Assembly: GCA_002793515.1 (NCBI GenBank)
Contig: PFEU01000018.1
Coordinates: 32,203-96,202 of the forward strand
Direction of reading: 5' to 3'
Length of the DNA: 64,000 bases
DNA from: Candidatus Uhrbacteria bacterium CG10_big_fil_rev_8_21_14_0_10_48_16
GTDB taxonomy: Bacteria > Patescibacteriota > Patescibacteriia > UBA9934 > GWF2-40-263
Under the pieces are notes generated by a model, which made no database searches, had not been told where the DNA came from, and saw only the letters and a list, made by a program, of their open reading frames with translations. The number at the start of each line of letters is the position of its first letter. The first letter of the stretch is position 1. Below, piece by piece: positions 5,713 to 58,112 of the stretch. The translations under genes and the position numbers were made by a program.

Positions 5713-5736
5713 GTTGATGTTGGAGTTGGGAGCGTG

Positions 5737-6808: not shown

Positions 6809-6825
6809 AAAATTGAATTGATTGT

Positions 6826-7230: not shown

Positions 7231-7235
7231 ATCAG

Positions 7236-7595: not shown

Positions 7596-7598
7596 AAA

Positions 7599-7949: not shown

Positions 7950-7955
7950 ATAATT

Positions 7956-8708: not shown

Positions 8709-8732
8709 ACTGGAAAGATTTAAAAATGATGA

Positions 8733-9347
8733 TTATCGAGAGTAAAACTCAACGATGAATGTTGGATCAAAACCTTGTTTGAGATCCTCGCCTTCTGGGA
8801 TCGCTGTAATCTTTCCAGTCATGGTCTTCTCATCTCGTGAAATCCAGCTTGGGAGAGTTCCCAGATTCATAGCCTCAGGGATTACTTTGATAATACCCTT
8901 TTCAACCTTTGAAGCCTTCACGGTAATCACATCACCTACGGACACAATAAAGGATGGAATATCAACACGCGCACCATTTACCTGAATAAATCCATGACTA
9001 ACCATCTGACGAGACTGTCGGCGAGTTCTTGCCCAACCGAGTCGGTAAATCACGTTATCAAGTCTGGTTTCAAGAAGTTGAACGAGGTTTTCAGCTGTAT
9101 TGCCTTCTCTTCGTGTTGCTTTCTCGAAATATCCAGCAAATTGCTTCTCCATCACCCCGTAAATCGCCTTCGCTTTCTGCTTTTCTTTTAATTGTTCACC
9201 AAAAGAAGAGAGTCGTGGACGACGACGAGCCTGTTTCGGACCATGTACACCAGGTGGATATGGACGTCGTTTAACGTACTTTTCCTTACCTAAAGTAATG
9301 CCTAATCGGCGAGAGAGTTTTACAATGGGAGTTCGCTTCGTTGCCAT
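8733..9347 (-). CDS. rpsD: 30S ribosomal protein S4
   Basis: 204 aa, LSRRLG...EKQ...YG...S4 domain; operon position between rpsK and rpoA. Confidence 0.9.
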   Translation of the reverse strand: MATKRTPIVKLSRRLGITLGKEKYVKRRPYPPGVHGPKQARRRPRLSSFGEQLKEKQKAKAIYGVMEKQFAGYFEKATRREGNTAENLVQLLETRLDNVIYRLGWARTRRQSRQMVSHGFIQVNGARVDIPSFIVSVGDVITVKASKVEKGIIKVIPEAMNLGTLPSWISRDEKTMTGKITAIPEGEDLKQGFDPTFIVEFYSR

Positions 9348-9350
9348 ATT

Positions 9351-9749
9351 CTAGACGCGACGTGGTTTAGGTTGACGACAGCCGTTATGTGGAAGAGGAG
9401 TGATGTCCTTAATAGCAAGAACCTGAAATCCATTTGCGTTAAGCGCACGGATTGCAGAGTCACGACCTGATCCGACTCCTTTTACAAAGACGTTAAGTTC
9501 TTTCAAACCTGTATCTTTTACCCGTTCAGCAGCATTCTTTACGACAATACTTGCTGCATAGGGAGTAGACTTCTTTGGTCCTTTAAATCCACAGTTTCCT
9601 GCGCTTGACCATCCAAGTGCATTTCCATTCAAGTCCGTAAGGGTCACAATCGTATTGTTATACGTTGACTGAATATAAGCACAGCCCTGTGACACTTGTC
9701 GGGCGACTTTTTTCTTTGCACGTGATTTTGAGTTGCTCTGAACAGCCAT
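9351..9749 (-). CDS. rpsK: 30S ribosomal protein S11
   Basis: C-terminal ...TPLPHNGCRQPKPRRV and GSGRDSAIRAL motifs of S11. Confidence 0.92.
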   Translation of the reverse strand: MAVQSNSKSRAKKKVARQVSQGCAYIQSTYNNTIVTLTDLNGNALGWSSAGNCGFKGPKKSTPYAASIVVKNAAERVKDTGLKELNVFVKGVGSGRDSAIRALNANGFQVLAIKDITPLPHNGCRQPKPRRV

Positions 9750-9754
9750 AAAGT

Positions 9755-10141
9755 TTAGGTCTTTGTAAGAGTTCGACGTCCACTACCAGTTGTTTTACGG
9801 ACATTTCCACGAACCGTTCGTGAATTGGATTTAGTTCGTTGACCTCGAGATGGCAACCCTTTTGTATGTCGAGACCCACGATAAGAAGAAATTTCCTTTA
9901 AGCGCTTAATGCTGGATGTTTTATCTCTACGCAAATCCCCTTCGAGTCGATAATTTTTCTCAAGGATTGTTCGTAGACTGTTTACTTGATCATCTGAAAG
10001 ATCCTTTGTCCGAATCGTTTCATCAATACCGGCTTCTTTGAGAACCTTTTTTGATGTGGTCAGACCGACACCAAAAACATAGGTCAAAGCAATGACGATG
10101 TGTTTATCCATTGGAATGTTGACTCCTGCAATACGTGCCAT
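9755..10141 (-). CDS. rpsM: 30S ribosomal protein S13
   Basis: [10 protein letters not shown]... N-terminus canonical for S13. Confidence 0.92.
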
Positions 10142-10146
10142 ATGTT

Positions 10147-10260
10147 TTACCCTTGTCGTTGTTTATGACGTGGATTTTTACAAATAACAACGACACGGCC
10201 TTCGCGTCGAAGAACTTTGCAATCGCGACAAATTTTCTTTGCTGATGATCGTACTTTCAT
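10147..10260 (-). CDS. rpmJ: 50S ribosomal protein L36
   Basis: Not in the ORF track (under 60 aa). Minus-strand translation gives [37 protein letters not shown], 37 aa with a Zn-ribbon CxxC...C...H; located between infA and rpsM as expected. Confidence 0.85.
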
Positions 10261-10296
10261 AATCATAAACGTCATCGAAACGATCGATGACGTTTG

Positions 10297-10518
10297 CTAA
10301 AATCGATAAACGACACGACCCTTTGTAAGGTCGTATGGACTGATCTCAACCTTCACGTCATCGCCTGGAAGAATTCTGATACGAAACTTTCGCATTTTTC
10401 CAGACAAGTGACCTGTGATGATCTGTCCGTTTTCTAGTTTTATTTTGAACTTTGCGGCAGGTAGAAGCTCTTCTACCGAGCCCCGCATCTCAATGAAATC
10501 TTTTGTCGTCTTTGCCAT
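10297..10518 (-). CDS. infA: translation initiation factor IF-1
   Basis: [15 protein letters not shown]...S1-like IF-1 sequence; the upstream 10 codons of the track ORF are probably not translated. Confidence 0.9.
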
Positions 10519-10673
10519 AGTGAAATAACGACAGAATTCTAGCATCAATTGCCAGAATCGGCAAGAAATAGTGGAGATTTAAGGCGCCGGTATTGTACTG
10601 ATGCGAGCCTTTGTTGTCAAGAATCTCTCCGTGGATAAATAAAAGGACGAAATTCCTTTTAGTTTAGCCAAAT

Positions 10674-12563
10674 TTATTCCAAAACCGCTTTAATTCTTCT
10701 AACCCCACTTGATGCTGATTCTTCTTTTGAAATCTTAAAGTGACCCAAAATACCGGTATGCTCTACATGCGGACCACCACAAACTTCTTTGCTATAAGAA
10801 CCACCCGTTGCTTCATCCCCAATAAAATACACTTTGATCTGATCTCCGAGCTCTGAATATTTATCCTCAAATAACCCGATTGCCCCTCGTTCTTTTGCTT
10901 GTTCAAGCGAAAGCATTTCAAAATGCACTAATAAATCCTTTTCAATTTGCTGATTCACAAGATCTTCAACAGCTTGAATTTGTTCCTGCGTCATCTTCTC
11001 AGCGTGTGAAAAATCAAAACGCAAGCGATCTGAGGTGATGTTTGAACCTTTCTGCTCTACATGCTCCCCTAGTACAGTGCGAAGAGCCTGATGAAGCATA
11101 TGGGTTGCGGTATGAAGTTTTACGGTCGCATCAGAATGATCCGCAAGACCACCAGCAAACTTTTGTGTAGAACCAGACCGAGAGAGGTCTTGATGCTTTC
11201 GAAACTCTTCCATGAAGATCGTTCGATCAACATGCTGACCTTGTTCTTCTGCCATTTCTTCACTCAGCTCTATAGGAAATCCATACGTTGAGTAAAGAAT
11301 AAACGCATCTTCTCCAGAAATCTTTCCTTTTTGTGAGAACATCTTTTCAAATTCACGTTCTCCTTTTAGAAGCGTTTTTGAGAACTTCTCCTCCTCGCGT
11401 GCGAGCTCTTCGAGAATTCGATCTTCTTTTTGCTTCAAATGAACATAATCCTTCTGGTACTCCCTTATATATAAACTCCCTATCTCAGAAACAAAGGCCG
11501 TATCGATCCCGAGTTTTTTTCCAAATCGGACGGCACGCCGAATTAAACGACGAACAAAATATCCTTGATCCTTATTCGAAGGGAAGACATCATCTCCAAT
11601 GAGAAACGTGGCCGCACACACATGATCAAGAATCACTCGCATCGAACGGGTAATCTCAGGACTTGATTCATAGGATGCGGATGAGAGGCTCTCAAGAGCC
11701 TCTTTTGCCGTTTGAAACGCATCGACCGCAAAAATATCTGGATTCCCATTGAGCGCAGCAGCGATACGGATAAGTCCTCCTCCAAAATCAACATTTTTCT
11801 GCGGAAGCCGTTCAAAACCATCTTCTGTCTTCTTATACTCCATGAAAACATTATTCCCGATCTCTAAAAATCTCCCACAGTCACAATTTACATGACAAGG
11901 AAGGTCTTTGAACTCAGAACGTTCATGTATACCTAAATCCATTCCAAAATCCCAAAACATCTCCGAATCAGGACCACCAGGCTCTCCCACAGGCATCTTG
12001 TCTGGAGTTCCGGAACGAGACCACCAATTCTTTGTCTCATCGTAGTAAAAGATTCGTCCGCCCTGCATCCCGTCACGCTCAGAAAAATCCACATCCAATG
12101 CCTCTATTCCCACATCGGAAAAAACCTTTTTCCAAATTCCTACAGCTTCTTCGTCTTTTGAAATCTGTGCATTCCCTCGGAATACAGTCACGTATAAATT
12201 TTGTGGATCTAATCCAATCGTTTGAGTCAAAAACTCAAACATCCATGGAATTTGTTCCTCCTTGAAGTAATCTCCAAGCGACCAATTTCCAAGCATCTCA
12301 AAAAATGTCGTGTGTCGATTATCTCCAACCTCCTCAATATCCTGAGAGCGAAAGCACTTCTGTGAATCGGCAAGTCTCACACCTTGTGGATGTGCTTCAC
12401 CAAGGAGATACGGAACCATTGGTTGCATTCCAGATCCGGTAAAAAGTGTTGTTGGATCATTCTCAGGAAGAAGCGAGGCAGATGGAATCACAACATGCCC
12501 ACGCTCCTCAAAGAATTTCAGGTATTTCGTTCGAATTTCGTGTATCGTCATAGCAGTACGCAT
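10674..12563 (-). CDS. alaS: alanine--tRNA ligase (short form, 629 aa)
   Basis: Class II aaRS N-terminus (FFEERGH...LLPENDPTTLFTGSGM...FRSQDIEEVGDNRHTTFFEMLGNWS) and editing-domain HxxxH (HTATHMLHQALR). Confidence 0.85.
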   Translation of the reverse strand: MRTAMTIHEIRTKYLKFFEERGHVVIPSASLLPENDPTTLFTGSGMQPMVPYLLGEAHPQGVRLADSQKCFRSQDIEEVGDNRHTTFFEMLGNWSLGDYFKEEQIPWMFEFLTQTIGLDPQNLYVTVFRGNAQISKDEEAVGIWKKVFSDVGIEALDVDFSERDGMQGGRIFYYDETKNWWSRSGTPDKMPVGEPGGPDSEMFWDFGMDLGIHERSEFKDLPCHVNCDCGRFLEIGNNVFMEYKKTEDGFERLPQKNVDFGGGLIRIAAALNGNPDIFAVDAFQTAKEALESLSSASYESSPEITRSMRVILDHVCAATFLIGDDVFPSNKDQGYFVRRLIRRAVRFGKKLGIDTAFVSEIGSLYIREYQKDYVHLKQKEDRILEELAREEEKFSKTLLKGEREFEKMFSQKGKISGEDAFILYSTYGFPIELSEEMAEEQGQHVDRTIFMEEFRKHQDLSRSGSTQKFAGGLADHSDATVKLHTATHMLHQALRTVLGEHVEQKGSNITSDRLRFDFSHAEKMTQEQIQAVEDLVNQQIEKDLLVHFEMLSLEQAKERGAIGLFEDKYSELGDQIKVYFIGDEATGGSYSKEVCGGPHVEHTGILGHFKISKEESASSGVRRIKAVLE

Positions 12564-12591
12564 TCTACAAAAGGGTTGATATCACGTCCAA

Positions 12592-14199
12592 TTAATTATC
12601 GGGTATGACTTCCTGAGGAGAAGACTGACGCATGGTACTGCGTTTAAAGCCTGCAAAGAACTTCGATTGTTCCTCTATACGCAACATCCAACCCATAAAC
12701 ACATAGACGAGCAAGCCGGCACCTCCAGCCAAAAACCCTTGAAGAAATACTCCCATAAAACTTTCGAGCGACAGGAACGATACGACAACCGGTTTTAACA
12801 ACTGCATCACAAAACCAGAAAGCATTCCTGAAATAGCGATTTTAAATACGACTGGAAGAATCGTAGATTCATTTAGAGTCCCCATACGTTGTCTGAGTGT
12901 GATCCAAAGAAGGAGCGCATTGATTGTCGAGGCAACAGAATACGCCATAGCGAGTGCTATCACACCAAAAGCATCTTTCAATAGAAACGCACTCAGAACT
13001 CCTATTAATGCAGAAACCACCGCAACCACAAGTGGGGTAATTGTATCGTGAAGCGCATAGAAGGCTCTTGCTAAGAGAAACACGAGCGATTGTGGAATGA
13101 ACGTTAGGGCAAAGAACGCGAGTGTGTCCGCCGTCGCGATGGTTGCCACCCAATCAAAAGCTCCAGCGCCAACGACCACCCGAACGATTTGAGCCCGCAT
13201 GATAAGAAAAAGGAGCGTCATGGGAACTAACAGGTACAAAAGCTGTCGTGTCGTCCCAGCAATAACTCGGATAAATTCCTCAAAATTCTTTTTATCTGCG
13301 AGTTCAGAAAGCGTTGGGAAAACGGCAATAGCAAAGGAAACTCCAATAATACCAACGGGGAAAAACTCAATATTATACGCAAACTGAAATACGGTAAGAC
13401 TTCCAGCCACAAACGTTGAGGCAATCACGGTCAACAAGATAAACATGAGCTGATTAACCGCAATTCCTATCGTTCGAGGACCCATCAACTTGGCCATTTT
13501 CACCACATCCTTCGAGCGAAGATCAAAAACAAATCGATACCGATATTCCGTATCTTTCAATCCTACAATCTGGACGAGTAAGTGAATGAAGGCTCCTAAC
13601 ACAACCCCCCAGGCGAGACCGACTGGCCCCATGAAATCAACCAACCAGAAAGCTCCTATGATAATTCCTACATTATAAAAAATCGGAGCCAGGGCGTAGA
13701 GGAAAAACTTTTTTAGACTCTGCAAAACAGATCCATAAATCATCGAGATCGCAAGGAACACCTGACCTAAAAACATGACACGCATGAATGATGCAACGCG
13801 AACTTGCTTGAACTCTTGAAACCCAGGAGCAACAACTTCGGAAAGTGGCCCAGAAAATAAGATAAGCAATATCGAGCTGACTACGACGATTCCACCGATC
13901 AAATGCACCGTGTTATTGGCAAACGCCCACGCCTTCTCTTTTCCTAAAGGATGATTGTAATGGGAAAGAAAGATCGGAATAAAACTGGCCGATAAAGCTC
14001 CAACAACAATCAAGCTAAACAATAAATCCGGAATCTTAAATGCCGCATAATAGACATCGAGCGTATCCCCCGCCCCAAACGCCCCTGCCAGAATACGATC
14101 TCGGATAAACCCGACGATCCGACTCATAAACGAAAGGACGCCCACAATCGTTGCGGCGCCTATAATCGTCTTTGATTCTTTTTGGATAAATCTCAACAT
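12592..14199 (-). CDS. murJ: lipid II flippase MurJ (MviN)
   Basis: SRIVGFIRDRILAGAFGAGDTLDVYYAAFKIPDLLF N-terminal signature, 14 TM; likely start is at MLRFIQKE, not the track start. Confidence 0.8.
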   Translation of the reverse strand: MLRFIQKESKTIIGAATIVGVLSFMSRIVGFIRDRILAGAFGAGDTLDVYYAAFKIPDLLFSLIVVGALSASFIPIFLSHYNHPLGKEKAWAFANNTVHLIGGIVVVSSILLILFSGPLSEVVAPGFQEFKQVRVASFMRVMFLGQVFLAISMIYGSVLQSLKKFFLYALAPIFYNVGIIIGAFWLVDFMGPVGLAWGVVLGAFIHLLVQIVGLKDTEYRYRFVFDLRSKDVVKMAKLMGPRTIGIAVNQLMFILLTVIASTFVAGSLTVFQFAYNIEFFPVGIIGVSFAIAVFPTLSELADKKNFEEFIRVIAGTTRQLLYLLVPMTLLFLIMRAQIVRVVVGAGAFDWVATIATADTLAFFALTFIPQSLVFLLARAFYALHDTITPLVVAVVSALIGVLSAFLLKDAFGVIALAMAYSVASTINALLLWITLRQRMGTLNESTILPVVFKIAISGMLSGFVMQLLKPVVVSFLSLESFMGVFLQGFLAGGAGLLVYVFMGWMLRIEEQSKFFAGFKRSTMRQSSPQEVIPDN

Positions 14200-14203
14200 G
14201 CAT

Positions 14204-15355
14204 CTATTGTCTCTTTTTCTTTCCGAGGGCAACAAAGAACCCAATCCCAACCAGTAACAGCACCACAAGAAGGGCGAGTGAAACGAGAATGATCGTATTC
14301 TCTAGGTGAAAGAATGGGACGAAAACAGTCGTTGTTTCATTTGAGACGATTCCTGCCCCATCGGTCATAGTCAATGTTACCGTATACGCACCAGAAGAAT
14401 TGTAGGTGTGCTGAACAGACGACTTTGAAGAAGTCACACCATCTCCAAAATCCCACACATAAACCATGGACGTATCTAGTACGGAGAGAACATCAAACGT
14501 GAATGTATTCCAATCATCCTGCCCGTATCTGAAAATCGCATTTGGTGAGATATGGATTTCCTCTAAGACAAGGGCTTCTTTTTCTTCAGGAACATTTGCC
14601 TCTACACGTTCTGGCTCGGATGAACTTTCTTTGATTGATTTTGCGACCTCCTCAACAATCCTTTTAAACGCGTCCGTGCTTGGGACTTCGGCTTTCGCCT
14701 GCTCCGGTGAATCTTCCGTCGTCACTTCAATCTCCGTCCTCTGCGGATCATTTGGATAGGCATCGTCTGAATCATCAACTCCATCTCCGTCTGAATCCAC
14801 CGTTGTAGGACTTGTGTGCAATTCTGCTTCTACCTCATCAGAAATCCCATCATTATCATCATCAGGATCACACGCATCCCCTTGGCCGTCCCCATCTGTA
14901 TCAAGTTGAGAAGCATTTGAAACAGAAATACAATTATCCTCATCATTCGCAACTCCATCTCGATCATCATCTATGATCGGATAGAGAATTTGTGTCACGG
15001 CGGAATCGTTCGCCATATTAACATCCGTCGGATCCGTCCCTCGAATCATGGCGAGGATATTAAACTTACTGGATGGAACAATAAAATCAACATAAACCTC
15101 TTCAGGATTTCCATCCTTGAGAAGTGATATGACCACCGGGTCATCAAGAAGCGTTGCTCCCTGATAGAACGAAACGTATCCGGAAACATCTTCATCTCCA
15201 ACGTTATTGACGGTTGCATAAATTCGAACCTGGTCACCGGCGACCAATGGATCGTGTGAAAAAAAGATATCTGTCTGACCGATCGCAAGATCCGCTGTGG
15301 CATGAGCGGGATAAGGGAAAAAAGCGAGAGCGATAATGAAAAGGAATCGTTTCAT
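14204..15355 (-). CDS. secreted surface protein with thrombospondin type-3 (Ca-binding) repeats, a PKD-like domain and a C-terminal TM anchor
   Basis: Signal peptide; repeated DxDxDGxxDxxD motifs (DTDGDGQGDACDPDDDNDGISD, DSDGDGVDDSDD); C-terminal hydrophobic helix plus KKKRQ. Confidence 0.6.
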   Translation of the reverse strand: MKRFLFIIALAFFPYPAHATADLAIGQTDIFFSHDPLVAGDQVRIYATVNNVGDEDVSGYVSFYQGATLLDDPVVISLLKDGNPEEVYVDFIVPSSKFNILAMIRGTDPTDVNMANDSAVTQILYPIIDDDRDGVANDEDNCISVSNASQLDTDGDGQGDACDPDDDNDGISDEVEAELHTSPTTVDSDGDGVDDSDDAYPNDPQRTEIEVTTEDSPEQAKAEVPSTDAFKRIVEEVAKSIKESSSEPERVEANVPEEKEALVLEEIHISPNAIFRYGQDDWNTFTFDVLSVLDTSMVYVWDFGDGVTSSKSSVQHTYNSSGAYTVTLTMTDGAGIVSNETTTVFVPFFHLENTIILVSLALLVVLLLVGIGFFVALGKKKRQ

Positions 15356-15909
15356 AAAATAACGGAGTCACCAGTTTGGATCCACTGTGGCGCTGCCTCA
15401 TCTTTTGTGAGGTGAAACGCCGGAATAAAAGTAGGATGAACACGCACCACCACATGATCGAACATCATCTGCTCGCGATCCTTCACACGAAGTGAGATCA
15501 CATCATGATGAGAAATGTTGAGCTCCTTTGCCATCTGAGGAGAAAGGTGAAGATGACGAATCGGAATGATGGTACTCGCTTTTGCACGAACCTCGCCAAA
15601 GTCAGTCTTAAGGATCACGGATGCAGAACGATCAAGATCCCCTGAAATGCGCAAAGGGGCATTGACCCCAATCGCAAAGGCGTCACTTGAAGAAAGTTCA
15701 ACTTGGGTATGACTTCGCACAGGGCCTATGACACACACTTTTTCAAACGTCCCAGATGGACCATGAATCGAAACCGTTTGTTTAGCAACAAATTGATTTC
15801 TTTGATCAATCACCGTACTTGTCTCGAGATCCGTCGATTGAAAAAGGATCAGTGCATCAGCCTCAGATACATGCACGTGTCGATGCTGTACTACGATAGG
15901 AATCGTCAT
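15352..15909 (-). CDS. PduL/EutD-like phosphate propanoyl/acetyl-transferase family protein
   Basis: Two repeated RH(V/L)H(V/L)S motifs (QHRHVHVSEADA; IRHLHLSPQMA) typical of the PduL double domain. Confidence 0.5.
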   Translation of the reverse strand: MTIPIVVQHRHVHVSEADALILFQSTDLETSTVIDQRNQFVAKQTVSIHGPSGTFEKVCVIGPVRSHTQVELSSSDAFAIGVNAPLRISGDLDRSASVILKTDFGEVRAKASTIIPIRHLHLSPQMAKELNISHHDVISLRVKDREQMMFDHVVVRVHPTFIPAFHLTKDEAAPQWIQTGDSVIL

Positions 15910-15910
15910 A

Positions 15911-16828
15911 TCAACTTCGAGAACGTCTGAGAATAACAAGAACCACCAAAGCCATCCCAACAAGCCCAAACACGTAGAACAGACCTACGATCTTTGCGTC
16001 TGAAGCATAGGGAAGCCATGGAACATTCATTCCATAGAATCCTGCGATCAAGGTTGGAACCATAAGGGATGCTGAAACAACGGTAAGCAACGTCACAACC
16101 TCATTCGTGCGATGTGACAAAAGGGCTTCATTCACGTCAAAAAGTCCATCAACAATCAATTTAAGATTGTCTGCTGCCATCCAGATCGTATCCAAAATAT
16201 CTTGAACATCATCAAAATACAGTGTCATGTCGTCTGAAATAAAGCTACGCTTCATGTTCATGAGACTGGAAAGAATTGTTCGTTGAGGATCAATCACATG
16301 ACGAAGAAACAAAATGTTTCTTCGCGCATGGCCCAAATCAACGGTGATTTTCTTATCGTGTCGTTTTTCAATGGCTTGTTCGAGACGACGCACTTCTAGG
16401 GTAAGGTTCGAGACCAGAGATACAGAATCACGAAATACTTCTGCCAGAATCTTATGAAGACAAAAGGCTGTCCCGTGTCCTAAAATCGATGAACGAAATT
16501 TCGCACTTTTCTCCATGCGTTCTGCAAAAGCCTCGAGAGCTGGAATGGGGGTATGTGTAATCGTCACAAGCCCTTCTGTACTCAAAAAGACGTACAGTTC
16601 CTCTCCAAATAAGTACCCCGTCTCTGAATCGATCATCGGGATATGAAACACAAAGAAGATGTAGTGTTTGTATGGATCCATCTTTGAAATTGGGGTCTCT
16701 GCACGAATGTCCTCGTAATCAAGATGATGAAATTTAAAACGTCCTTGAAGTTCTTCAAGATCTACATCTGTGACATGACCAATGTGATGCCAGTTGAGTC
16801 CTTTTGATTCAAGAATGATTGCCCCCAT
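15911..16828 (-). CDS. corA: magnesium/cobalt transporter CorA
   Basis: C-terminal two TM helices with the YGMNV (GMN) motif. Confidence 0.8.
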   Translation of the reverse strand: MGAIILESKGLNWHHIGHVTDVDLEELQGRFKFHHLDYEDIRAETPISKMDPYKHYIFFVFHIPMIDSETGYLFGEELYVFLSTEGLVTITHTPIPALEAFAERMEKSAKFRSSILGHGTAFCLHKILAEVFRDSVSLVSNLTLEVRRLEQAIEKRHDKKITVDLGHARRNILFLRHVIDPQRTILSSLMNMKRSFISDDMTLYFDDVQDILDTIWMAADNLKLIVDGLFDVNEALLSHRTNEVVTLLTVVSASLMVPTLIAGFYGMNVPWLPYASDAKIVGLFYVFGLVGMALVVLVILRRSRS

Positions 16829-45978: not shown

Positions 45979-45989
45979 ACACAAACACC

Positions 45990-46127
45990 CCTCAGGGCTG
46001 TCTCAAAACTCGCGATCTCGACTTTCACGGGCGCCCGTCGACCCCACTCTCCCTACGTTTAGTAGGGTTCGTGGGGATCGACAGCCCGTTCAAGCCGATC
46101 TCATCGAGTTTTGAGACAGCCCCCTCA
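45990..46127 (+). mobile_element. MITE-like 128-bp element with perfect 18-bp terminal inverted repeats (GGGCTGTCTCAAAACTCG / CGAGTTTTGAGACAGCCC) and a 5-bp direct duplication CCTCA, inserted into the glyA terminator
   Basis: TIR-L 45995-46012, TIR-R 46105-46122; CCTCA at 45990-45994 and 46123-46127. Removing the element and one CCTCA copy restores CACCCC-tcac-GGGGTG-TTTTTT, a canonical terminator. The interior is GC-rich with nested palindromes (CGGGCGCCCG; CCCTAC-gttta-GTAGGG). Confidence 0.55.
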
Positions 46128-46141
46128 CGGGGTGTTTTTTG

Positions 46142-49740: not shown

Positions 49741-51288
49741 ATGGATCCGCTTGCGCTGACTGCTTCTCATGCTACTATGCCCTCATCTATGGCCGGACAA
49801 GAACGCATCCCTCCACAAAATCTTGAAGCAGAGCAATCATTGCTTGGATCGCTTCTGATTGATAAGGACGCCATGATTAAAATTGGAGATCGTACAACGC
49901 CTGACGATTTCTACCGAGACTCGCATCGACACATTTTTGAAGCCATGATGCAACTCTACGAGCATCATGACCCAATCGACATCCTTTCTCTTGGAAACCG
50001 ACTTGAAGAACAGGGGCTCCTTCAACGCGTGGGTGGACGCGCGTATCTTGTCGAGCTTTCCAATACGGTTCCTACGTCCGCAAACGTCGCGCACTACGCA
50101 GACATCATTCAAAAGAAGGCAACGCTTCGACGCATCCTGACAGCCGCAACGGAAATTACCCGTATTGGATATGCAGAAGAGGAAGATGTTGAAGCAAGTC
50201 TCGATCAAGCCGAACGAGCCCTCTTTGGTGTTTCAGAAAAGTTCAACAAGAATACCTTTGTTCATATTAAGTCCGTGTTACATGATGCGTTTGATCGCAT
50301 CGATGAACTGCATCGTGACCGCGGAAAGTTGCGGGGAGTCGCAACCGGATACCGAGAGCTCGACGCGCTGTTAGCAGGATTTCAAAAATCGGACCTCATC
50401 ATCTTGGCGGCTCGACCTTCTGTGGGAAAAACGTCGTTTGCCTTGGATATTGCTCGGCAAATTGGCGTGTCTACAAAGGTTCCTGTTGGCTTCTTCTCCC
50501 TCGAAATGAGCAAAGAACAGCTTGTCGATCGTATGATTTGTGCGCAGGCAAACGTCGATCTTTGGAAACTTCGCACCGGACGTCTTTCTGATCGAGATGA
50601 TGATTTCCCTCGTATTGGAACCGCTCTCGGACAGCTCTCGGAAGCTCCGATCTTCATCGATGACGCAGCGGGACTGAACATTATGCAATTGCGTACCAAA
50701 GCGCGCCGTCTCAAAAATGAGCATGGTCTTGGGGTCCTCATGGTTGACTACCTGCAGTTGATGGAAGGACGCACAAGTAAAGGATCTGACAACCGTGTCC
50801 AAGAGGTTTCAGAAATTTCTCGGGGACTCAAAATGATTGCGAAGGAACTTAATATTCCTGTCCTCGCGCTCGCACAGCTTTCTCGTGCGGTAGAACAAAC
50901 CAAACCGGCAATCCCTCGACTTTCTCACTTGCGAGACTCCGGTTCTATCGAACAAGACGCCGATGTGGTGATGTTCATTTATCGAAAGTCTGCTGATCGT
51001 GGCTATCGCCCAGAGGATATTCCCCCTGAAGAAGCGAACATCGCCGAGATTCATATCGCCAAACATCGAAACGGTCCAACAGGAATGGTTCGTCTCTTCT
51101 TTGATAAGACACGCGCATCATTTCAGAATCTTGAGTTGCGTCCTGGCTCAGCGCCACCTCCACCAGCGGATGACAATTCAAGTGGATTTGCTCCTCTTGC
51201 TCGACCACAGCATTCCACTCCCCTAGCTCCACCACCCATCGATCCTAATCCACATATTGAATCGTCCCCTACAGGTGCGGTAAACTAG
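49741..51288 (+). CDS. dnaB: replicative DNA helicase DnaB (with Pro-rich C-terminal extension)
   Basis: PQNLEAEQSLLGSLL N-terminus, Walker A ARPSVGKTSFAL, RecA-like motifs. Confidence 0.9.
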   Translation: MDPLALTASHATMPSSMAGQERIPPQNLEAEQSLLGSLLIDKDAMIKIGDRTTPDDFYRDSHRHIFEAMMQLYEHHDPIDILSLGNRLEEQGLLQRVGGRAYLVELSNTVPTSANVAHYADIIQKKATLRRILTAATEITRIGYAEEEDVEASLDQAERALFGVSEKFNKNTFVHIKSVLHDAFDRIDELHRDRGKLRGVATGYRELDALLAGFQKSDLIILAARPSVGKTSFALDIARQIGVSTKVPVGFFSLEMSKEQLVDRMICAQANVDLWKLRTGRLSDRDDDFPRIGTALGQLSEAPIFIDDAAGLNIMQLRTKARRLKNEHGLGVLMVDYLQLMEGRTSKGSDNRVQEVSEISRGLKMIAKELNIPVLALAQLSRAVEQTKPAIPRLSHLRDSGSIEQDADVVMFIYRKSADRGYRPEDIPPEEANIAEIHIAKHRNGPTGMVRLFFDKTRASFQNLELRPGSAPPPPADDNSSGFAPLARPQHSTPLAPPPIDPNPHIESSPTGAVN

Positions 51289-51294: not shown

Positions 51295-51606
51295 ATGTTC
51301 AACAAACTCAAACACATCAAGGATCTAAAAAAACAGGGAAAGGTCATGCAGAATGAGCTTGCCAGTGTCGTGCATGAAGGATCTTCCGCGCATGGAAAGG
51401 TAAAAATAGTCGTGAACGGAAATCGAGACCTTGTGGAAGTCACTATTGATCCAGAATTTCTCTCTGACGCAAAGAAGCTCGAAGAAGCGATTAAGAGCGC
51501 CTGGAAAGATGCAACAGGGATGAAGTTTCAAATGAAGCTCGCAAAGAAAATGCAGGATATGGGCGGACTCGACATGCTAAAAAACCTAGGGGGAGGTGGA
51601 GAATAG
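51295..51606 (+). CDS. ybaB: nucleoid-associated protein YbaB/EbfC
   Basis: 103 aa, GKVKIVVNGNRDLVEVTIDPEFL signature. Confidence 0.85.
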   Translation: MFNKLKHIKDLKKQGKVMQNELASVVHEGSSAHGKVKIVVNGNRDLVEVTIDPEFLSDAKKLEEAIKSAWKDATGMKFQMKLAKKMQDMGGLDMLKNLGGGGE

Positions 51607-52213
51607 ACCTGTGCGTCGGTTCCCTGAACCTATTTCAAATCTTGTCGCGGCGTTTGCGCGACTTCCTGGCGTAGGGCCAAAGACGGCCCTACGTTATGTT
51701 TTTTATCTTCTTCAACAACCAAAATTCGATCTCGACGTGATGGCACGCGCACTCACACAACTCGGAGAGCGCATTCAAACCTGCTCCCGATGTTACACCT
51801 ACACAGAAAGCGAAACGTGTGAGATTTGTTTGGATCCAAAGCGTGATCCCTCTCTCTTGTGTGTCGTCGAAGAAGCACGCGACATCTCCACGATCGAAGC
51901 GACTGGAATGTATTCTGGGTTCTATCATGTCCTCGGGGGAACCCTGAATCCCATCGAAGGCATGACGCCCGACACCATCCGCTTGCGCCAGCTTAAGGCT
52001 CGATTAGAGACGAGTCCGGACGTAAAGGAAATCATCCTCGCCCTCTCTCCCACCGCACACGGAGAAGCCACCATCATGTTCATCCAAAAACAACTTGCCT
52101 CCCCTGGTCGCACCATGACGCGCCTCGCCCGAGGACTCCCACTCGGTGCCACCCTCGAATTCGCCGATGAAGTAACCCTCACTGACGCGCTCAAAGGAAG
52201 AAAGAAACTTTAA
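51596..52213 (+). CDS. recR: recombination protein RecR
   Basis: HhH LPGVGPKTA, C4 Zn finger CSRC...CEIC, Toprim. Confidence 0.9.
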   Translation: MENRPVRRFPEPISNLVAAFARLPGVGPKTALRYVFYLLQQPKFDLDVMARALTQLGERIQTCSRCYTYTESETCEICLDPKRDPSLLCVVEEARDISTIEATGMYSGFYHVLGGTLNPIEGMTPDTIRLRQLKARLETSPDVKEIILALSPTAHGEATIMFIQKQLASPGRTMTRLARGLPLGATLEFADEVTLTDALKGRKKL

Positions 52214-52299
52214 TTCTGGTCGATGGTGACAACGAGAGTGTTGCCTAAAATAAAACGCACGCTGTTCGTGTTTCGACGAGGCGTGCGCCGTGGGTGGAC

Positions 52300-52665
52300 T
52301 CAGAGATGCGATGCGGGTGTGCTGTTCTCCTTCTCGAAAGTTGTGGGGACGTACCCCACCAGGATCATGCCCTCCGAGCACGTGAGAATATGCTCCTCAT
52401 GCGGGGAAAACATGAACATGACAGGAGCCTGGAGCTCACGCTCCTGAACACCGTCGACCTGTGTCCAGGTTCGAACCCGGCACCGCCCCTGGATGAGGAA
52501 GAACCCTTCCGCATGGGGATGGGAGTGGTTGCCCAGTTGCACTCCATCCTTCTGTGTGATGAGTACTTTCCCCTCCACCGTGTGCGGAAAATCCGCAGAA
52601 GGACGGAACGCTGTCAGCGTCCGCCTCTCGTCCGTATGACTGTCTGCCACAGGGAATATCTCCAT
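52300..52665 (-). CDS. cupin-domain protein, GC-rich (about 60%)
   Basis: Cupin motifs G(x)5HxH...E and P-G-x-x-H-x-H-x-N (HSHPHAEGFFLIQGRCRV; FMFSPHEEH); strong SD AAGGAAGGAA before the ATG. Confidence 0.55.
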   Translation of the reverse strand: MEIFPVADSHTDERRTLTAFRPSADFPHTVEGKVLITQKDGVQLGNHSHPHAEGFFLIQGRCRVRTWTQVDGVQERELQAPVMFMFSPHEEHILTCSEGMILVGYVPTTFEKENSTPASHL

Positions 52666-52973
52666 GTCGTTCCTTCCTTATTTTAGTTTTTTGACTAAAT
52701 TCAACGTACAACAATTAGGCCCGTATGTCAATCGAACGAGAGGAAAGACTGATTTAAAATAACCCATAATATAAGGAGAAAGCGATATGTTCTGTGCCTT
52801 CCATCTAAATTCTGTACTGGAAACTGCAAGCCTGAGGCGGTAACATAGATTTGTTGTGATGTGAAACTAATGCTCCAAACCTTCACGCCTTTCAATTGTT
52901 TTTTGCACAACAAAGGGATACACGGTTTGGGTCTCAGTTCAGGTCTCACCCCTCCGTAAACCATTCGAGATTC

Positions 52974-53010
52974 ACTGCAAACGACATTAGACAATTATCG
53001 CGCGTTAAGC
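52974..53010 (+). repeat. partial attC-like site 0 (ACTGCAAACGACATTAGAC...GTTAAGC) upstream of the first cassette ORF
   Basis: Shares the ACTGCA...(A/G)(A/C)(C/T)(G/A)TTAG(A/C)(C/T) pattern with sites A-C; GTTAAGC fits GTTRRRY. Confidence 0.25.
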
Positions 53011-53042
53011 GAAACAAGTGTGAACATCATATAATTCGATCT

Positions 53043-53822
53043 ATGTTTGGATTACTACGTTTTGAATATTACCTAGCAGGCAGACAGCTATGGTTTAGTA
53101 AAGCTGGACACTTATACTCTCCAAAACTAATGCTTGGCTATGCAATTGAGACAAGTCTTAAACATGGCCTTTTAATTATTGAGGATGCAGGAGTCAGCTT
53201 GGACCAAGATGCAAAAAGTATCCGAGGTAAAAGTCATGATTTAAAAGAGCTACTAAGCACATGTGTTAGATATAATCTCTTCTCAACAATAGATACTTCG
53301 GACGACTTTTTGGACTTTGCTACCAAAGGACTCAACAGCCGATATCCAAAACATATACGAGATAATTTTGATGAAGCTAGCAACAGAGATCCTTATTTAC
53401 TCACAATTAATGTTGGAGAAACTATAGGATACTATGATGATTTAATGCTCAAACTTGATGATGAAATCTGGTCTATAACAAATAAACCAGAATTTTCTGT
53501 TGGATTTCGTGGATCATCACAGGCAAGTTCAGCCACAGGGAAAATATTTTTTCATTGTAACCTTCCTGCAATGCAGAGACTTAAAAAGTACCATGCAACC
53601 GTATCAGAACATAGATCTCATCACGTTAGTGATATTGAATCACTGAATAAGGGGGAGGAATTTTTGTGGAAATATGAAGACCGGTCAACGATAAGTAAAT
53701 CTACTTCTTATGACTCATCAACATTCAAATATAAAAGTGTTGAAGAGACAGAGATTACACTTCACGATGGAACTAAAATTATTGATTATGGTCCGCAACT
53801 AAAAATGTGGTTTCACATTTAA
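53043..53822 (+). CDS. cassette ORF A: hypothetical protein (AT-rich island)
   Basis: 259 aa from MFGLLRFEYYLAG...; the track ORF begins at 52896 but would cross attC-like site 0; no SD; about 35% GC. Confidence 0.4.
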   Translation: MFGLLRFEYYLAGRQLWFSKAGHLYSPKLMLGYAIETSLKHGLLIIEDAGVSLDQDAKSIRGKSHDLKELLSTCVRYNLFSTIDTSDDFLDFATKGLNSRYPKHIRDNFDEASNRDPYLLTINVGETIGYYDDLMLKLDDEIWSITNKPEFSVGFRGSSQASSATGKIFFHCNLPAMQRLKKYHATVSEHRSHHVSDIESLNKGEEFLWKYEDRSTISKSTSYDSSTFKYKSVEETEITLHDGTKIIDYGPQLKMWFHI

Positions 53823-53826
53823 CTAC

Positions 53827-53883
53827 GCCTAACACTGCATATCCAAAATACTAGCTACTTCGGATCATGCAGAAACGTTAGAT
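53827..53883 (+). repeat. attC-like site A (57 bp): GCCTAAC-ACTGCATATCC...GGATcATGCAG-aaac-GTTAGAT
   Basis: The ends match the integron attC core consensus (RYYYAAC and GTTRRRY) exactly; the internal imperfect palindrome CTGCAT-ATCC / GGAT-c-ATGCAG carries one unpaired base. Confidence 0.5.
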
Positions 53884-53915
53884 ACCATACACCTTACCAA
53901 TTAAAGAAGAAAAAC

Positions 53916-54410
53916 ATGCAGGATTTACTCGAACAAATAGAAAAAGGGCTTGAGGCTAATCTTTATTACTTATCACTTTTTGTAGCCTTGGCTATTCCAG
54001 ATATATGTGGAGCAATTGACGCATCGGATGGCGAAGCTTCAAAAGCAAAATATATAAAATGGTTCGATGAACACTTACAAACCAAATATAGCACTTCGTT
54101 TAATGGTGAACTTTGCTATTATTTTAGGTGCTCGCTTCTTCATCAAGGTTCATCTCAACATTCGAAAAGTAGATACAAACGAATAATGTTCATTGAACCA
54201 GACAGAAGCATAAGAATTCATCGAAGTATTATGAATGATGCTTACTTCATAGACGTAAAAGACTTTTGTAATGATATGGTCGAAGCCTGCAAAGGATGGC
54301 TGCAAAAAGTGGAAACGACACCTTTATTCCAAACAAATTCTATTAAATTTATAATGCGTTATCCTCAAGGCCTCAAACCTTATGTTAGCGGAGTTCCAGT
54401 AATCGGCTGA
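53916..54410 (+). CDS. cassette ORF B: HEPN-like protein (Rx4H motif)
   Basis: 164 aa; N-terminal helix LYYLSLFVALAIPDICGAI and ...YYFRCSLLHQGS containing R-x4-H as in HEPN RNase domains; motif-level only. Confidence 0.4.
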   Translation: MQDLLEQIEKGLEANLYYLSLFVALAIPDICGAIDASDGEASKAKYIKWFDEHLQTKYSTSFNGELCYYFRCSLLHQGSSQHSKSRYKRIMFIEPDRSIRIHRSIMNDAYFIDVKDFCNDMVEACKGWLQKVETTPLFQTNSIKFIMRYPQGLKPYVSGVPVIG

Positions 54411-54416
54411 CACAGC

Positions 54417-54503
54417 ACTTAACACTGCATAAACGGTTACGCTTCATTTCTTTCCGCTTCGCCCATATTGATTCGCAACATCAGATATACGCAGACGTTA
54501 GCT
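54417..54503 (+). repeat. attC-like site B (87 bp): ACTTAAC-ACTGCATAAACG...ATATACGCAGAC-GTTAGCT
   Basis: The 5' end matches RYYYAAC; the 3' GTTAGCT is one mismatch from GTTRRRY; imperfect palindrome CTGCATA / TACGCAG with an extra G. Confidence 0.45.
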
Positions 54504-54608
54504 AAACTATCTCTTTTCTTTTTTAAACCATCCCTCCTTCACTAAGACTATAACAAACAAATACCAAATTATTTAAAAACTTAGTGAACGTCTTTTTTTA
54601 TCAATAAT

Positions 54609-54991
54609 ATGATGAAAGTAGAGTTTAAAAAATCTAAATTGCATGGCATTGGTATTTTCGCCATGGCTGATATTCAAGCTGATGAAATTATTGAAATCTG
54701 TCCAATAATAATGTTGAATGCAAAAGATACAAACGAGATCGATAAAACACATTTGTATGATTATTATTTCAGTTGGAGAGAACAAGGTTCTGCAATTTCT
54801 TTAGGATATGCTCACTCTATAATCATTCTTACGAACCCAATGCTAAATACGATAAAGATTTTGTAAACAATCGGATTGTTTTTACATCAGTTAAAACAGT
54901 TAAAAAGGGCGAAGAAATTACTGTGAATTACAATGGAGATCCTGATAAGAAAGAAAAGGTTTGGTTTGAAAAATCAGAATTGAATAGCTAA
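54609..54991 (+). pseudogene. cassette ORF C: SET-domain lysine methyltransferase interrupted by a +/-1 frameshift near 54808-54815
   Basis: Frame 1 gives the N-SET part (KSKLHGIGIFAMADIQADEIIEICPIIML...); the downstream frame gives LYNHSYEPNAKYDKDFVNNRIVFTSVKTVKKGEEITVNY, the NHSCxPN/ELxxxY SET core. The two halves overlap in DNA at ...ggatatgctcactctataatcat..., consistent with a single-base indel. Confidence 0.6.
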
Positions 54992-55053
54992 AGTGAACTC
55001 CAAGCTTGCTCCGTTTCACTCTGCAAAACACCGCAAATACTGAAATGTTAGCT
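54986..55053 (+). repeat. attC-like site C (68 bp): AGCTAAAG...CTGCAAAACACCGCAAATACTGAAAT-GTTAGCT
   Basis: The 3' end GAAATGTTAGCT is nearly identical to sites A (GAAACGTTAGAT) and B (AGACGTTAGCT); the 5' AGCTAAA pairs with the 3' TTAGCT. Confidence 0.4.
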
Positions 55054-55311
55054 GAAATATGTATACCCTAGAATTATCAAACCCTATGAAGTTTGAGATA
55101 ATTTATCTAAACGAGTAAACACACATCACATCATATAAGACACATAAAAAACTTCCGATGTTGGTTATGTTTTGTATAAGAAAAGCCCCGAGTGAAGTCG
55201 AGCAGTGGCTCTTCTCCACGCGGGGCGCGTGTCATCACACCGGTTCGACCTAGCTCATGCGTCCACTAGACGATGACTCCTCGGTCGAGTTGGTGTGGGG
55301 ATGTGGGTTGT

Positions 55312-55899
55312 CTACCCGTTGGCGTCCGCCTTGCTGGGAGCGTCGTGCTCGGCGAGGACGTCGTCCCAGGTGCTGAGGAAGATCTCGCCCATGTCGGGTC
55401 GGTAGATCAGGGCGTGCGTGGTCCAGAACTCGAGCGAGTCCTGGCGCTCGTTGGTATCGGGCTTGGTGTTGCACGGCTCGTTGGGAGCGATCACGCCCGG
55501 GTAGCAGGTGACGAGCATGAACTCATCAAGGAAGACCTTCTTGCCATCCTCCCACTTGAACTTCGGCTGAACGACGACGACCAAGGTCGAGACGTCCGGG
55601 ATGCTGTTCGTCGGGAGGAGGAGGACTCGACTGGGGCCCTTGCGCGGGCCCCGACGGACGAACTGGAGCTCCTCGTTGGTGTGAGAAGCGAGGGTGGTGA
55701 CCAGCGTCGCCGGAGCGATCGACCGGCCCATCTGGACCTCGAAGGCCTTCTTGTCCGTCACGTTGGTCAGGTCGAGTCCCCCGATGCATCCCTCGAAGAG
55801 GACGACCAGGTTCTCGTCTCGTGCCCAGTACTCCTGGGCGTTGGGGTAGGGAAAGACGGATGAACCGTCACGGGTCGTGTAAACGTCACCGAGAGGCAT
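55312..55899 (-). CDS. hypothetical protein, GC-rich insertion (about 62% GC)
   Basis: Likely start is MPLGDVYTT preceded by the SD GGAGGG; the track start at 55971 overlaps a terminator hairpin; followed on its transcript by the hairpin CGCGCCCCG...CGGGGC plus U-tract near 55200-55250. Confidence 0.35.
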   Translation of the reverse strand: MPLGDVYTTRDGSSVFPYPNAQEYWARDENLVVLFEGCIGGLDLTNVTDKKAFEVQMGRSIAPATLVTTLASHTNEELQFVRRGPRKGPSRVLLLPTNSIPDVSTLVVVVQPKFKWEDGKKVFLDEFMLVTCYPGVIAPNEPCNTKPDTNERQDSLEFWTTHALIYRPDMGEIFLSTWDDVLAEHDAPSKADANG

Positions 55900-55950
55900 G
55901 AAGCCCTCCTGTCCTCGACCAGGGATTGGCGAGAGACAAACCAAGGTATC

Positions 55951-55990
55951 AAAAAACAGGCCCTTTGTCAATGCATAGGCCTGTTTTCTT
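55951..55990. terminator. bidirectional terminator ACAGGCC-(15 nt loop)-GGCCTGTTTTCTTT
   Basis: 7-bp GC-rich stem with T-tracts on both strands, downstream of the ABC exporter. Confidence 0.5.
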
Positions 55991-55995: not shown

Positions 55996-57774
55996 TTACT
56001 CCAGGAATCCGCCGGCTTGGATCTCCCACAACTTCTTGTAGATATTGGTCTTCTTTTTAAGAAGTTGATCGTGTGTGCCGGAATCAACAACTTGACCTTC
56101 ATCGATCACGAGAATGCGATCCATCTTCATGATGGTCGACAGACGATGCGCAATGACAATGGTGGTTTTTCCTTTCATCAGCTCCTCAAGCGCTTGCTGG
56201 ATCAGCAACTCAGATTCTGAATCAAGACTGGAGGTAGCCTCATCAAGGACAAGAATTGGTGCGTTCTTGAGAATGGCTCGAGCAATGGCAATCCGCTGAC
56301 GCTCTCCCCCCGACAACTTTACCCCACGCTCTCCCACGAAGGTTTCATAGCCTTGGGAAAGACTCTCAATAAACTCATGAGCGTGTGCCTTTTTCGCGGA
56401 TTCAATCACCTCTTCATCTGTCGCGTCTCTTCGTCCGTACCGAATATTTTCCATCACAGTTCGATGGAACAAGATCGGTTCCTGAGGAACAAGAGCAAGA
56501 TTTTCACGCAGACTCTCCTGCGTGACCTTTGCGATGTTTTGGTTCCCGATGAGGATCTTTCCTCTCTCCACATCATAGAAGCGGAACAGAAGTTTTGTGA
56601 TGGTCGACTTCCCCGCCCCAGAAGGACCCACCAACGCGATTTTTTCTCCTGACTCAATAACAAGATTCATGTCACGAAGAATACGCCGAGTCTTATTGAA
56701 GCTAAAAAAGACATTCTGAAACTCAATCCTTCCTGTTTGAACTTGAAGTTCTTTCGCTGTTCGCGCATCTTTAATCTCGATAGGCATCTGAAGAATCTCC
56801 ACCATCTCATCTGCATCCGCCAGTGCGGTAAACACACGACGAACCGCACGACCAAAGTCCCAAATCTTCATGAAAATTCCAATGAGATATCCTTGAATCA
56901 ATGCAAAGTCTCCAATGGTGAGCACGCCTTGTTGCCAAAGTTTCACCGCGTAATACATGATGATAAACTCAATGGCAAACATGAACGCGGATTGAAATGC
57001 TTCAAGAATCTCGGCAAGATTCCACGTGAACGTATTGGATCTTCGAAGTCGCTCCGTGACCTCTTTGTACAATGTTTTCTCGAAGCCTTTTCCCGTAAAC
57101 AACTTAACCGTCACGGCATTGGTAATAGAATCTGCAGCGATTCCTGTTGCTTCGGAATCAATCGCGGCGCGTCTGAAATCATACTTAAGCTTCCATCGTG
57201 CATAGAGAATATTAAACACCATGAACGACACGACCCACACAAGAAGAATCAGGGCCAAGAAGGTACTGCGCGTTGCCAGCACAATCAAATTCCCCGTAAG
57301 AACGATGGTCAGAGGAATAAAGTGATACTGAATCTGATCGGCTACATCCTCAAACGATCGCGAGAGTCGACTCACTTTTCTCACCAATGACCCAGCGAAA
57401 TTGTTAGAAAAGAATTTGTACGAATGTTCATGCAGATGTGCCAACGAGGTCTGTTCTAGATCTGCCATCATGCGTGGCTGAAACCAGTTACTGATCAGAT
57501 TTGATACACGCCACATCACCCACATTCCCCCATGTATGACCGCCACAATAATCAATGTCCCTACAAGAAGCGATGGAAGCTGATCTGGATCAGCAGGAAG
57601 ATCACCGGAGAGCAGATCGAAAAATCGCTTGTAGAACAGTGGAGCGATCACGTCGAGAATATTTGAAATCCCAATCAAGAAGAGAATCAAAAAGAGACGT
57701 CCTTTATATCGACGCGCATGTTCCCAATACACTTTGAGAATTTGACGTGTTTGAATTTTTTCTGTGTTTTTCAT
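55996..57774 (-). CDS. ABC transporter permease/ATPase fusion (MsbA/exporter type)
   Basis: 6 TM N-domain; Walker A GPSGAGKST, signature LSGGERQR, Walker B ILVLDEATS. Confidence 0.85.
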   Translation of the reverse strand: MKNTEKIQTRQILKVYWEHARRYKGRLFLILFLIGISNILDVIAPLFYKRFFDLLSGDLPADPDQLPSLLVGTLIIVAVIHGGMWVMWRVSNLISNWFQPRMMADLEQTSLAHLHEHSYKFFSNNFAGSLVRKVSRLSRSFEDVADQIQYHFIPLTIVLTGNLIVLATRSTFLALILLVWVVSFMVFNILYARWKLKYDFRRAAIDSEATGIAADSITNAVTVKLFTGKGFEKTLYKEVTERLRRSNTFTWNLAEILEAFQSAFMFAIEFIIMYYAVKLWQQGVLTIGDFALIQGYLIGIFMKIWDFGRAVRRVFTALADADEMVEILQMPIEIKDARTAKELQVQTGRIEFQNVFFSFNKTRRILRDMNLVIESGEKIALVGPSGAGKSTITKLLFRFYDVERGKILIGNQNIAKVTQESLRENLALVPQEPILFHRTVMENIRYGRRDATDEEVIESAKKAHAHEFIESLSQGYETFVGERGVKLSGGERQRIAIARAILKNAPILVLDEATSSLDSESELLIQQALEELMKGKTTIVIAHRLSTIMKMDRILVIDEGQVVDSGTHDQLLKKKTNIYKKLWEIQAGGFLE

Positions 57775-57791: not shown

Positions 57792-58112
57792 TTAAGCGGC
57801 GATTTTTTCAATCTTGACTCGAGTGAATGGCTGTCTGTGCCCAACGTTTCGTCGGTATCGAGACTTTGACTTATACTTGATAACCGAGACTTTGTCCGCT
57901 CGATCATGCTCAAGAATTGTCGCCGACACTTTTGCGCCGCTAAGAATTGGTGTTCCAATTTGTGTTGCTGTTCCTTCATCATCAGAAACAAGAAGCACAT
58001 CAAAATTGATGGTTGCTCCTACTTCTGATTCAAGCTTTTCAATCTTAAGCTCCTGTCCTTCACGGACGATGTACTGCTTCCCCCCTGCTTTAATGACGGC
58101 GAATGTTGCCAT
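57792..58112 (-). CDS. rplU: 50S ribosomal protein L21
   Basis: MATFAVIKAGGKQYIVREGQELKIEKL...L21 signature. Confidence 0.9.
   Translation of the reverse strand: MATFAVIKAGGKQYIVREGQELKIEKLESEVGATINFDVLLVSDDEGTATQIGTPILSGAKVSATILEHDRADKVSVIKYKSKSRYRRNVGHRQPFTRVKIEKIAA

Follow-up and report, generated by a model that had tools for sequence, protein, structure and literature searches.

The small SET-domain gene downstream of recR in this Candidatus Uhrbacteria genome is very probably a recently inactivated pseudogene, a passenger in a decaying, integrase-less cassette array. A single G is missing from the codon of a near-invariant glycine, Gly68 of the motif LGYGS(L/I)YNHS, and the coding sequence is consequently spread over two overlapping reading frames (Table 1). 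The host is an uncultured groundwater bacterium of the CPR (Patescibacteria) with a tiny genome, and exact look-ups of the flanking proteins (PJE76532-PJE76539, locus tags COV05_041xx) returned entries named Candidatus Uhrbacteria. The window, to which all positions refer, is the whole 64,000-nucleotide stretch of DNA that was analysed.

Table 1. Features in and around the broken SET gene, in order of position within the window.
Feature	Position	Strand	Remarks
dnaB	49741-51288	+	
ybaB	51295-51606	+	
recR	51596-52213	+	
Strain-variable mosaic island, recR to ABC-transporter gene	52244-55990		right edge inferred from GC shift
Cupin gene	52300-52665	-	GC 0.57
259-aa ORF, first low-GC cassette	53043-53822	+	NCBI hypothetical protein COV05_04160
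attC ending the 259-aa ORF cassette	53825-53883	+	GCCTAAC...GTTAGAT; well-formed
164-aa ORF, cassette upstream of SET	53916-54410	+	NCBI hypothetical protein COV05_04165
Degenerate attC-like site of the preceding cassette	54415-54503	+	ACTTAAC...GTTAGCT; R' core is the SET cassette 5' boundary
SET cassette	54498-55047	+	550 bp, GC about 0.29-0.33; between the G/TT points of two GTTAGCT cores
Broken SET gene	54609-54991	+	last + strand cassette
ORF1, N-terminal SET part	54609-54866	+	85 aa; 84 aa from second ATG at 54612
ORF2, C-terminal SET part	54773-54991	+	72 aa; -1 frame relative to ORF1
Lesion	54810-54811	+	one G gone from the GGN codon of Gly68 (tat g-c tca)
C-terminal SET part after the lesion	54812-54991	+	SLYNHSYEPN...GEEITVNYNG...VWF; TAA at 54989-54991
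attC remnant 3' of SET	54985-55053	+	L'-R'-like end ...ACTGAAATGTTAGCT
High-GC ORF	55312-55971	-	GC 0.63
ABC transporter gene	55996-57774	-	
rplU	57792-58112	-	

The two ORFs match consecutive parts of one SET domain. ORF1 alone aligns with positions 1-43 of the Pfam SET model (E 6e-5) and ORF2 alone with positions 63-105 (E 5e-9), a match in two halves that is far beyond chance. Adding one base beside G54810, which turns tat g-c tca into tat ggc tca, yields a repaired protein of 127 aa that reads SLGYGSLYNHSYEPN across the lesion and spans PF00856 from end to end (positions 1-105 of 105, 64.2 bits against a cut-off of 22.4, E 1.7e-17). Alignment of the repaired protein to 48 intact homologues is ungapped and keeps all 18 invariant columns, 11 of which lie downstream of the lesion (S69, Y71, N72, H73, N78, E103, N107, Y108, N109, W119 and F120). 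The SET motifs are present as G13-I-G15, N72-H73-S74...P77-N78 and E103...Y108; the NHS aligns with the NHS of the chlorella-virus protein vSET (1n3j), and Y108 with vSET Y105, which we take, from the vSET literature, to be the catalytic tyrosine. The ORF coordinates and SET description given in an earlier note on this DNA were correct, and the alignment to PF00856 after frame repair that it had proposed retains the catalytic residues (NHSxxPN and Tyr108). The gene would thus encode a minimal SET-domain protein lysine methyltransferase of about 125 aa, of the small prokaryotic and viral type, with methylation as its predicted activity; it encodes no signal peptide or extra domain.

At the codon level, intact homologues read '...tct tta ggt tat ggt tca ata tat aat cat...' where the window reads '...tct tta gga tat g-c tca ctc tat aat cat...', and all five homologues compared as DNA have GGN at the Gly68 position. 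The missing G falls inside the interval 54808-54815 in which the earlier note had placed a single-base indel, which is thereby confirmed; the site is a GG dinucleotide, with no homopolymer run. Because one G is lost in the Gly68 codon, translation from the ATG at 54609 or 54612 goes off-frame after residue 67, and ORF1 consists of authentic residues 1-67 followed by 17 out-of-frame residues and a stop codon (54864-54866). The -1 frame that holds ORF2 is free of stops from 54761, and no single uninterrupted frame encodes the SET domain: ORF1 closes at 54866, short of the NHS motif and the catalytic tyrosine. The resulting product of 84-85 aa retains the GxG strand region at its N-terminus but neither the NHSxxPN pseudoknot motif nor the catalytic tyrosine, and would be unable to methylate.

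A one-base indel flanked by two perfectly conserved halves is also what a sequencing or assembly error is expected to look like, in which case the organism would have an intact SET gene of 127 codons from which the consensus dropped one G. The same deletion recurs, however, in contigs from three independent assembly pipelines: ten fetched full loci and one short contig (L104) match the window at 100% identity where they cross the lesion, and the contigs that span it come from ENA megahit (3 assemblies), JGI (5 metagenomes plus L012/L104) and Logan (2 runs). The truncated ORF1 product is itself present in public protein collections (P0086, 84 aa; P0146, 85 aa), and P0086 is recorded on at least 23 contigs in ENA, JGI and Logan. 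An intact allele was found neither among 5.8 billion protein clusters, where the best full-length match is 78% identical, nor in the JGI contig collection, where a DNA pattern allowing 0 or 1 extra base recovered the deleted form only; the site, moreover, is not of the homopolymer kind. An exact DNA search of the lesion region against GTDB species genomes, in which the source genome is not a species representative, gave no match. With 11 identical assemblies, independent at the contig level, a random sequencing or assembly error is excluded for practical purposes, and we regard this explanation, one of three that the earlier note had proposed, as highly improbable.

The lesion-bearing contigs show 99.86-100% identity; L001, L013 and L014 differ by one or a few SNPs outside the lesion. 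Since they all derive from one nearly clonal population, they document a single mutational event. The short contig L104 (JGI Ga0210028_1096314, 1-617) begins with a poly-G stretch and has a MurF-like ORF fused in frame to SET at 54667; this fusion is almost certainly an assembly chimera, and the contig still carries the deleted allele.

Alternatively, the shift could be programmed, with -1 ribosomal frameshifting or transcriptional slippage yielding the whole SET enzyme in active form. The downstream frame has no stops and keeps all invariant residues, and the required shift is in the common direction (-1), as this explanation would need. Yet the permissible interval for a shift from ORF1 to ORF2 (54761-54866) holds no X_XXY_YYZ slippery heptamer, and its sole homopolymer, TTTT at 54859, lies past the NHS motif, so that neither a heptamer nor an A/T run occurs at the site defined by homology. 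No stimulatory RNA structure was found downstream either, since 54812-54900 folds at -7.8 kcal/mol (z 0.15 against shuffles). Nor do relatives share the shift: the 48 aligned homologues are all unshifted, single ORFs, the five checked in DNA included, and the shift is seen in one clonal population only. A programmed frameshift, also among the explanations proposed earlier, is therefore extremely doubtful.

Equally hard to credit is a split but functional gene whose two polypeptides reassemble into an active SET fold. Both halves are intact reading frames, as such an arrangement would require, but ORF2 could start only at a TTG (54773), it has no in-frame ATG ahead of the NHS motif, and neither a ribosome-binding nor a promoter signal can be recognised for it, which makes a two-polypeptide enzyme unlikely; a scan for sigma-70 promoters performed at chance (7 found against 6.9 expected). 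The break also falls inside the LGYGS-NHS segment, which belongs to the pseudoknot that makes up the SET active site, and no other split homologue occurs among the best 120 of 2219 relatives.

Among the three explanations proposed earlier, the evidence favours a genuine pseudogene, and several features suggest that the inactivation is recent. Against the ten closest homologues, the part after the lesion is 72.8% identical and the part before it 75.5%, and the downstream half has no stop codon, although stops are frequent by chance at about 30% GC. A half that is still open, keeps its invariant residues and has diverged no further than these values indicate points to a deletion that is recent relative to the divergence of the family, and we infer that the frameshift is young on that scale. 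An undecayed C-terminal half would also be expected under continued selection on a product that is still expressed, which counts against the pseudogene.

The broken gene lies in a strain-variable region between recR and the ABC transporter gene. In a 94%-identical relative (L015), synteny extends to 52243, 30 bp past the recR stop, and beyond that point stands an unrelated low-GC dehydrogenase-like gene; because the relative differs immediately after recR, the region is an insertion hot spot that varies between strains. The three + strand cassettes have a GC content of 0.29-0.39 compared with about 0.47 for the genome, and two - strand high-GC genes (57% and 63%) flank these cassettes. In composition the island is a mosaic with at least three sources of DNA. 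Neither the 259-aa and 164-aa ORFs nor the high-GC ORF matches a Pfam or NCBIfam family. A terminator-like hairpin at 55202-55187 accompanies the high-GC ORF.

Elsewhere in the window, a near-perfect palindrome of about 150 nt (45985-46135) separates the convergent SHMT and Ham1/ITPase genes. Its single-strand DNA fold has an energy of -49.4 kcal/mol (z -10.3), about 119 nt of it are absent from L015, where the alignment jumps from 46001 to 46121, and nothing in Rfam matches it. It has the look of a palindromic insertion resembling a MITE, or of a bidirectional terminator of very large size. The 64-kb window holds no tRNA gene, and no Rfam family reaches its gathering threshold there.

The earlier note had also placed the SET gene in a putative cassette, and the window contains one statistically clear attC site that bears on this claim. 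The bottom strand of 53825-53883 forms an R-box/L-box hairpin with one extrahelical G (-10.1 kcal/mol, z -4.1), and none of 200 shuffles was as stable. As Rfam has no attC family, we used a home-made covariance model built from 7 sites on two contigs that carry relatives (L098 and L100); long attC sites were centre-trimmed before model building, and all window sequences were excluded to avoid circularity. This model scored 53825-53883 at 33.7 bits (E 1e-6), its only significant match on both strands of the 64 kb.

The sites that flank the SET gene itself are degenerate. Two GTTAGCT cores (54497-54503 and 55047-55053) bracket the gene at a distance of 550 nt, and the 34 nt that end at each core form a direct repeat with 71% identity (D1, upstream copy 54477-54510). 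The upstream core, 105 nt before the ATG, fits the G/TTRRRY core sequence and marks the 5' boundary of the SET cassette. The site to which it belongs, 54415-54503, ranks fifth with the covariance model (11 bits, E 2.5), in the expected place and on the expected strand, a score that is not significant alone; it has no stable fold, and its 3' half is similar to an attC that lies upstream of SET in L098. Downstream, 54985-55053 folds no better than shuffles (z 0.14) and has no covariance-model match, and we read it as a degenerate or truncated attC; the SET-specific 3' flank CTTGCTCCGTTTCACT (55005-55020), here joined to the L'-R'-like end, is common to the window SET copy and intact relatives, including L016. 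No foldable attC was found at the 3' end of the SET ORF. A candidate for the first boundary of the array at about 52955-53011 (GTTAAGC) has no fold and no model match and was left unassigned, and a loose attC scan (AAC/GTT cores, at least 6/7 pairing, fold of -8 kcal/mol or lower) was discarded as non-specific, with about 94 matches per strand.

The clustered sites in the window thus comprise one significant match, one weak match and one remnant, and tblastn searches with IntI1 and with the L100 recombinase found no integrase in the 64 kb. The array is at best a decaying, integrase-less one that, with one clear attC, would fall short of the formal two-attC criterion for a CALIN. Since the flanking sites are not significant and no integrase lies in the 64 kb, the cassette status of this SET copy rests partly on its cassette-borne relatives.

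In several of those relatives the SET gene is found in arrays with different neighbours. A 73%-identical homologue (P0009) lies on a contig of small same-strand ORFs (L105, JGI Ga0558720_00756), where at least 11 attC matches, four of them outside the training set, follow one another on one strand over 11.5 kb at about 30% GC (4906-16452). The 78%-identical homologue (P0001) follows GNAT, HAD and AAA_18 ORFs in an array of small ORFs that share one strand; as the nearest intact homologue, it provides the intact copy in a relative for which the earlier note had called. A third homologue (P0003, in L100) is intact and directly follows an attC (E 6.5e-11) and a 111-aa ORF. In L016, L100, L096, L106 and L108, similarity among the SET loci starts exactly at a GTTAAAT core, with unrelated DNA upstream, which is the signature of site-specific insertion at G/TT.

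Two further features of these arrays were observed. Many cassettes, in L105 and also in L098, L016, L106 and L108, have a conserved sequence of 35-60 nt just 5' of R'', namely AACTCTCGCTCCTAAGGTCGCTCGCCCTAACGGGTC, or AACTTGCTCCGTTTCACTTCG...GGGTC. In L100, a XerA-like tyrosine recombinase gene (2086-2912, - strand) is divergent from the 111-aa ORF, attC and SET and is split by a frameshift in a poly-A run; its product matches NF040815 at 228 bits and TIGR02249 at 205 bits, below the cut-off of 265, and is without an IntI insert.

It is quite unlikely, though less so than any of the rival accounts of the frameshift, that the gene is a pseudogene whose surrounding repeats are not integron attC sites, in an ordinary horizontally acquired islet with terminator-like hairpins. 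The window does hold only one significant site, a loose scan for R''/R' cores with hairpins is non-specific alone, and no IntI lies in the window or within 20 kb of the L105 array, where no tyrosine recombinase of any kind was found over that distance. The sole recombinase near the SET gene in a relative is XerA-like and does not reach the integron-integrase cut-off, and none of the loci examined yielded an IntI with the integron-specific insert. On the other hand, the sites combine inverse RYYYAAC...GTTRRRY cores with an imperfect stem that has an extrahelical base and a length of 57-103 nt, they share one orientation and follow small same-strand ORFs at their 3' ends, consecutively so in L105, and the points at which homology between SET loci breaks coincide exactly with the GTT core. 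The cassette setting claimed earlier is supported with reservations: the attC at 53825-53883 and the cassette-borne relatives speak for it, while the degenerate flanking sites and the lack of an integrase in the 64 kb speak against it.

Read as a pseudogene in a decaying array, the locus suggests the following course of events. The SET gene would have arrived as an integron-type gene cassette, a step for which the sites and relatives described above provide partial evidence, and would have been inserted directly downstream of recR within a short array of three low-GC cassettes. Decay of its own attC may have immobilised this copy. The loss of a single G from the Gly68 codon has left a truncated product that would be inactive, and the dispensable passenger gene would now be in the process of being lost through mutation.

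The array resembles a CALIN, a cluster with two or more attC sites that lacks an integron integrase (Cury et al. 2016, PMC4889954). As in a CALIN, small, promoterless-looking ORFs in one orientation are each followed by an attC-like site with no integrase near, the composition is foreign to the host, and the location varies between strains. It differs in that the window holds one statistically clear attC where two are required, and the sites that flank SET are degenerate. No complete integrons were found in very small genomes, the size class of the CPR (Cury et al., PMC4889954). The IntegronFinder 2.0 paper names neither Patescibacteria nor CPR, and neither Patescibacteria/CPR nor methyltransferase cassettes are mentioned in the study of archaeal integron arrays by Ghaly et al. 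(2022, PMC9668308).

Bacterial SET proteins had been called rare in the earlier note, a view that our searches contradict. A protein search with the repaired SET sequence returned 2219 relatives, and with one genome per GTDB species at least 596 SET loci were found, among them loci in Saprospiraceae, Lewinellaceae, Methanosarcina, Methanomicrobiaceae, Acidimicrobiia, Nomurabacteria, Uhrbacteria, Saccharibacteria and a Bacillus; on these counts, small prokaryotic SET proteins are not rare. Among the best 120 of the 2219 relatives, nearly all are single-domain SET proteins of 113-144 aa (the best are 78% identical and have 125 aa), with source names that include Patescibacteria, Paceibacterota, Woesearchaeota and Nanoarchaeia. 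The occurrence of close homologues in both Patescibacteria and DPANN-type archaea (Woesearchaeota, Nanoarchaeia) fits cross-domain cassette traffic, given the integron arrays described from archaea. The covariance model found no attC near SET in 80 GTDB loci (Saprospiraceae, Methanosarcina and others), so that carriage on cassettes characterises the close Patescibacteria-type subfamily and not the family at large.

Of the solved structures, the nearest are those of Schizosaccharomyces pombe Set7 (5h6z) and PBCV-1 chlorella-virus vSET, with E-values of 1.6e-23 and 2.5e-20, respectively, for the family profile and 2.9e-16 and 5.7e-16 for the repaired protein alone. Like vSET, Set7 and Go1-SET, the Uhrbacteria protein consists of a SET domain alone, of about 120-130 aa, with GxG, NHSxxPN and ...EITxxY motifs; unlike them, it is encoded by a frameshifted copy and is predicted to be inactive. 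Methanosarcina genomes contain homologues that are 44-49% identical and appear to belong to the group of Go1-SET, a grouping by similarity. The passage of PMC3980110 that cites Manzur and Zhou (2005) states that Methanosarcina mazei Go1-SET methylates the chromatin protein MC1-alpha in vitro. CPR bacteria are expected to have neither histones nor MC1. Legionella RomA/LegAS4, Chlamydia NUE and Bacillus anthracis BaSET share the SET catalytic domain; these pathogen effectors, unlike the Uhrbacteria protein, are larger, secreted and aimed at host histones, and the match of our SET sequence to AnkI/LegAS4 is weak and partial (14.8 bits against a cut-off of 550).

In itself the frameshift carries little weight, being an ordinary stage in the decay of a horizontally acquired gene that the host can do without; the dead SET copy adds to an enzyme family that is already known, and the genetic element that carries it is likewise of a known kind. 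For annotation, the two ORFs are better treated as one pseudogene than as two hypothetical proteins.

More speculatively, CPR bacteria with genomes of about 1 Mb could maintain and exchange integron-type cassettes that are serviced by XerA-like recombinases or in trans, with the SET cassette circulating between CPR bacteria and DPANN archaea and the window representing an immobilised, mutating end state; the evidence for this scenario, which we consider improbable, is a recognisable attC family with at least 11 sites on one contig. No description of integron cassettes in Patescibacteria/CPR was found in the literature searched, and attC-type arrays in ultra-small CPR genomes, without a canonical integron integrase at the loci examined, merit a dedicated survey. 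For the SET family, travel on cassettes within the Patescibacteria subfamily provides a concrete route to its patchy distribution.
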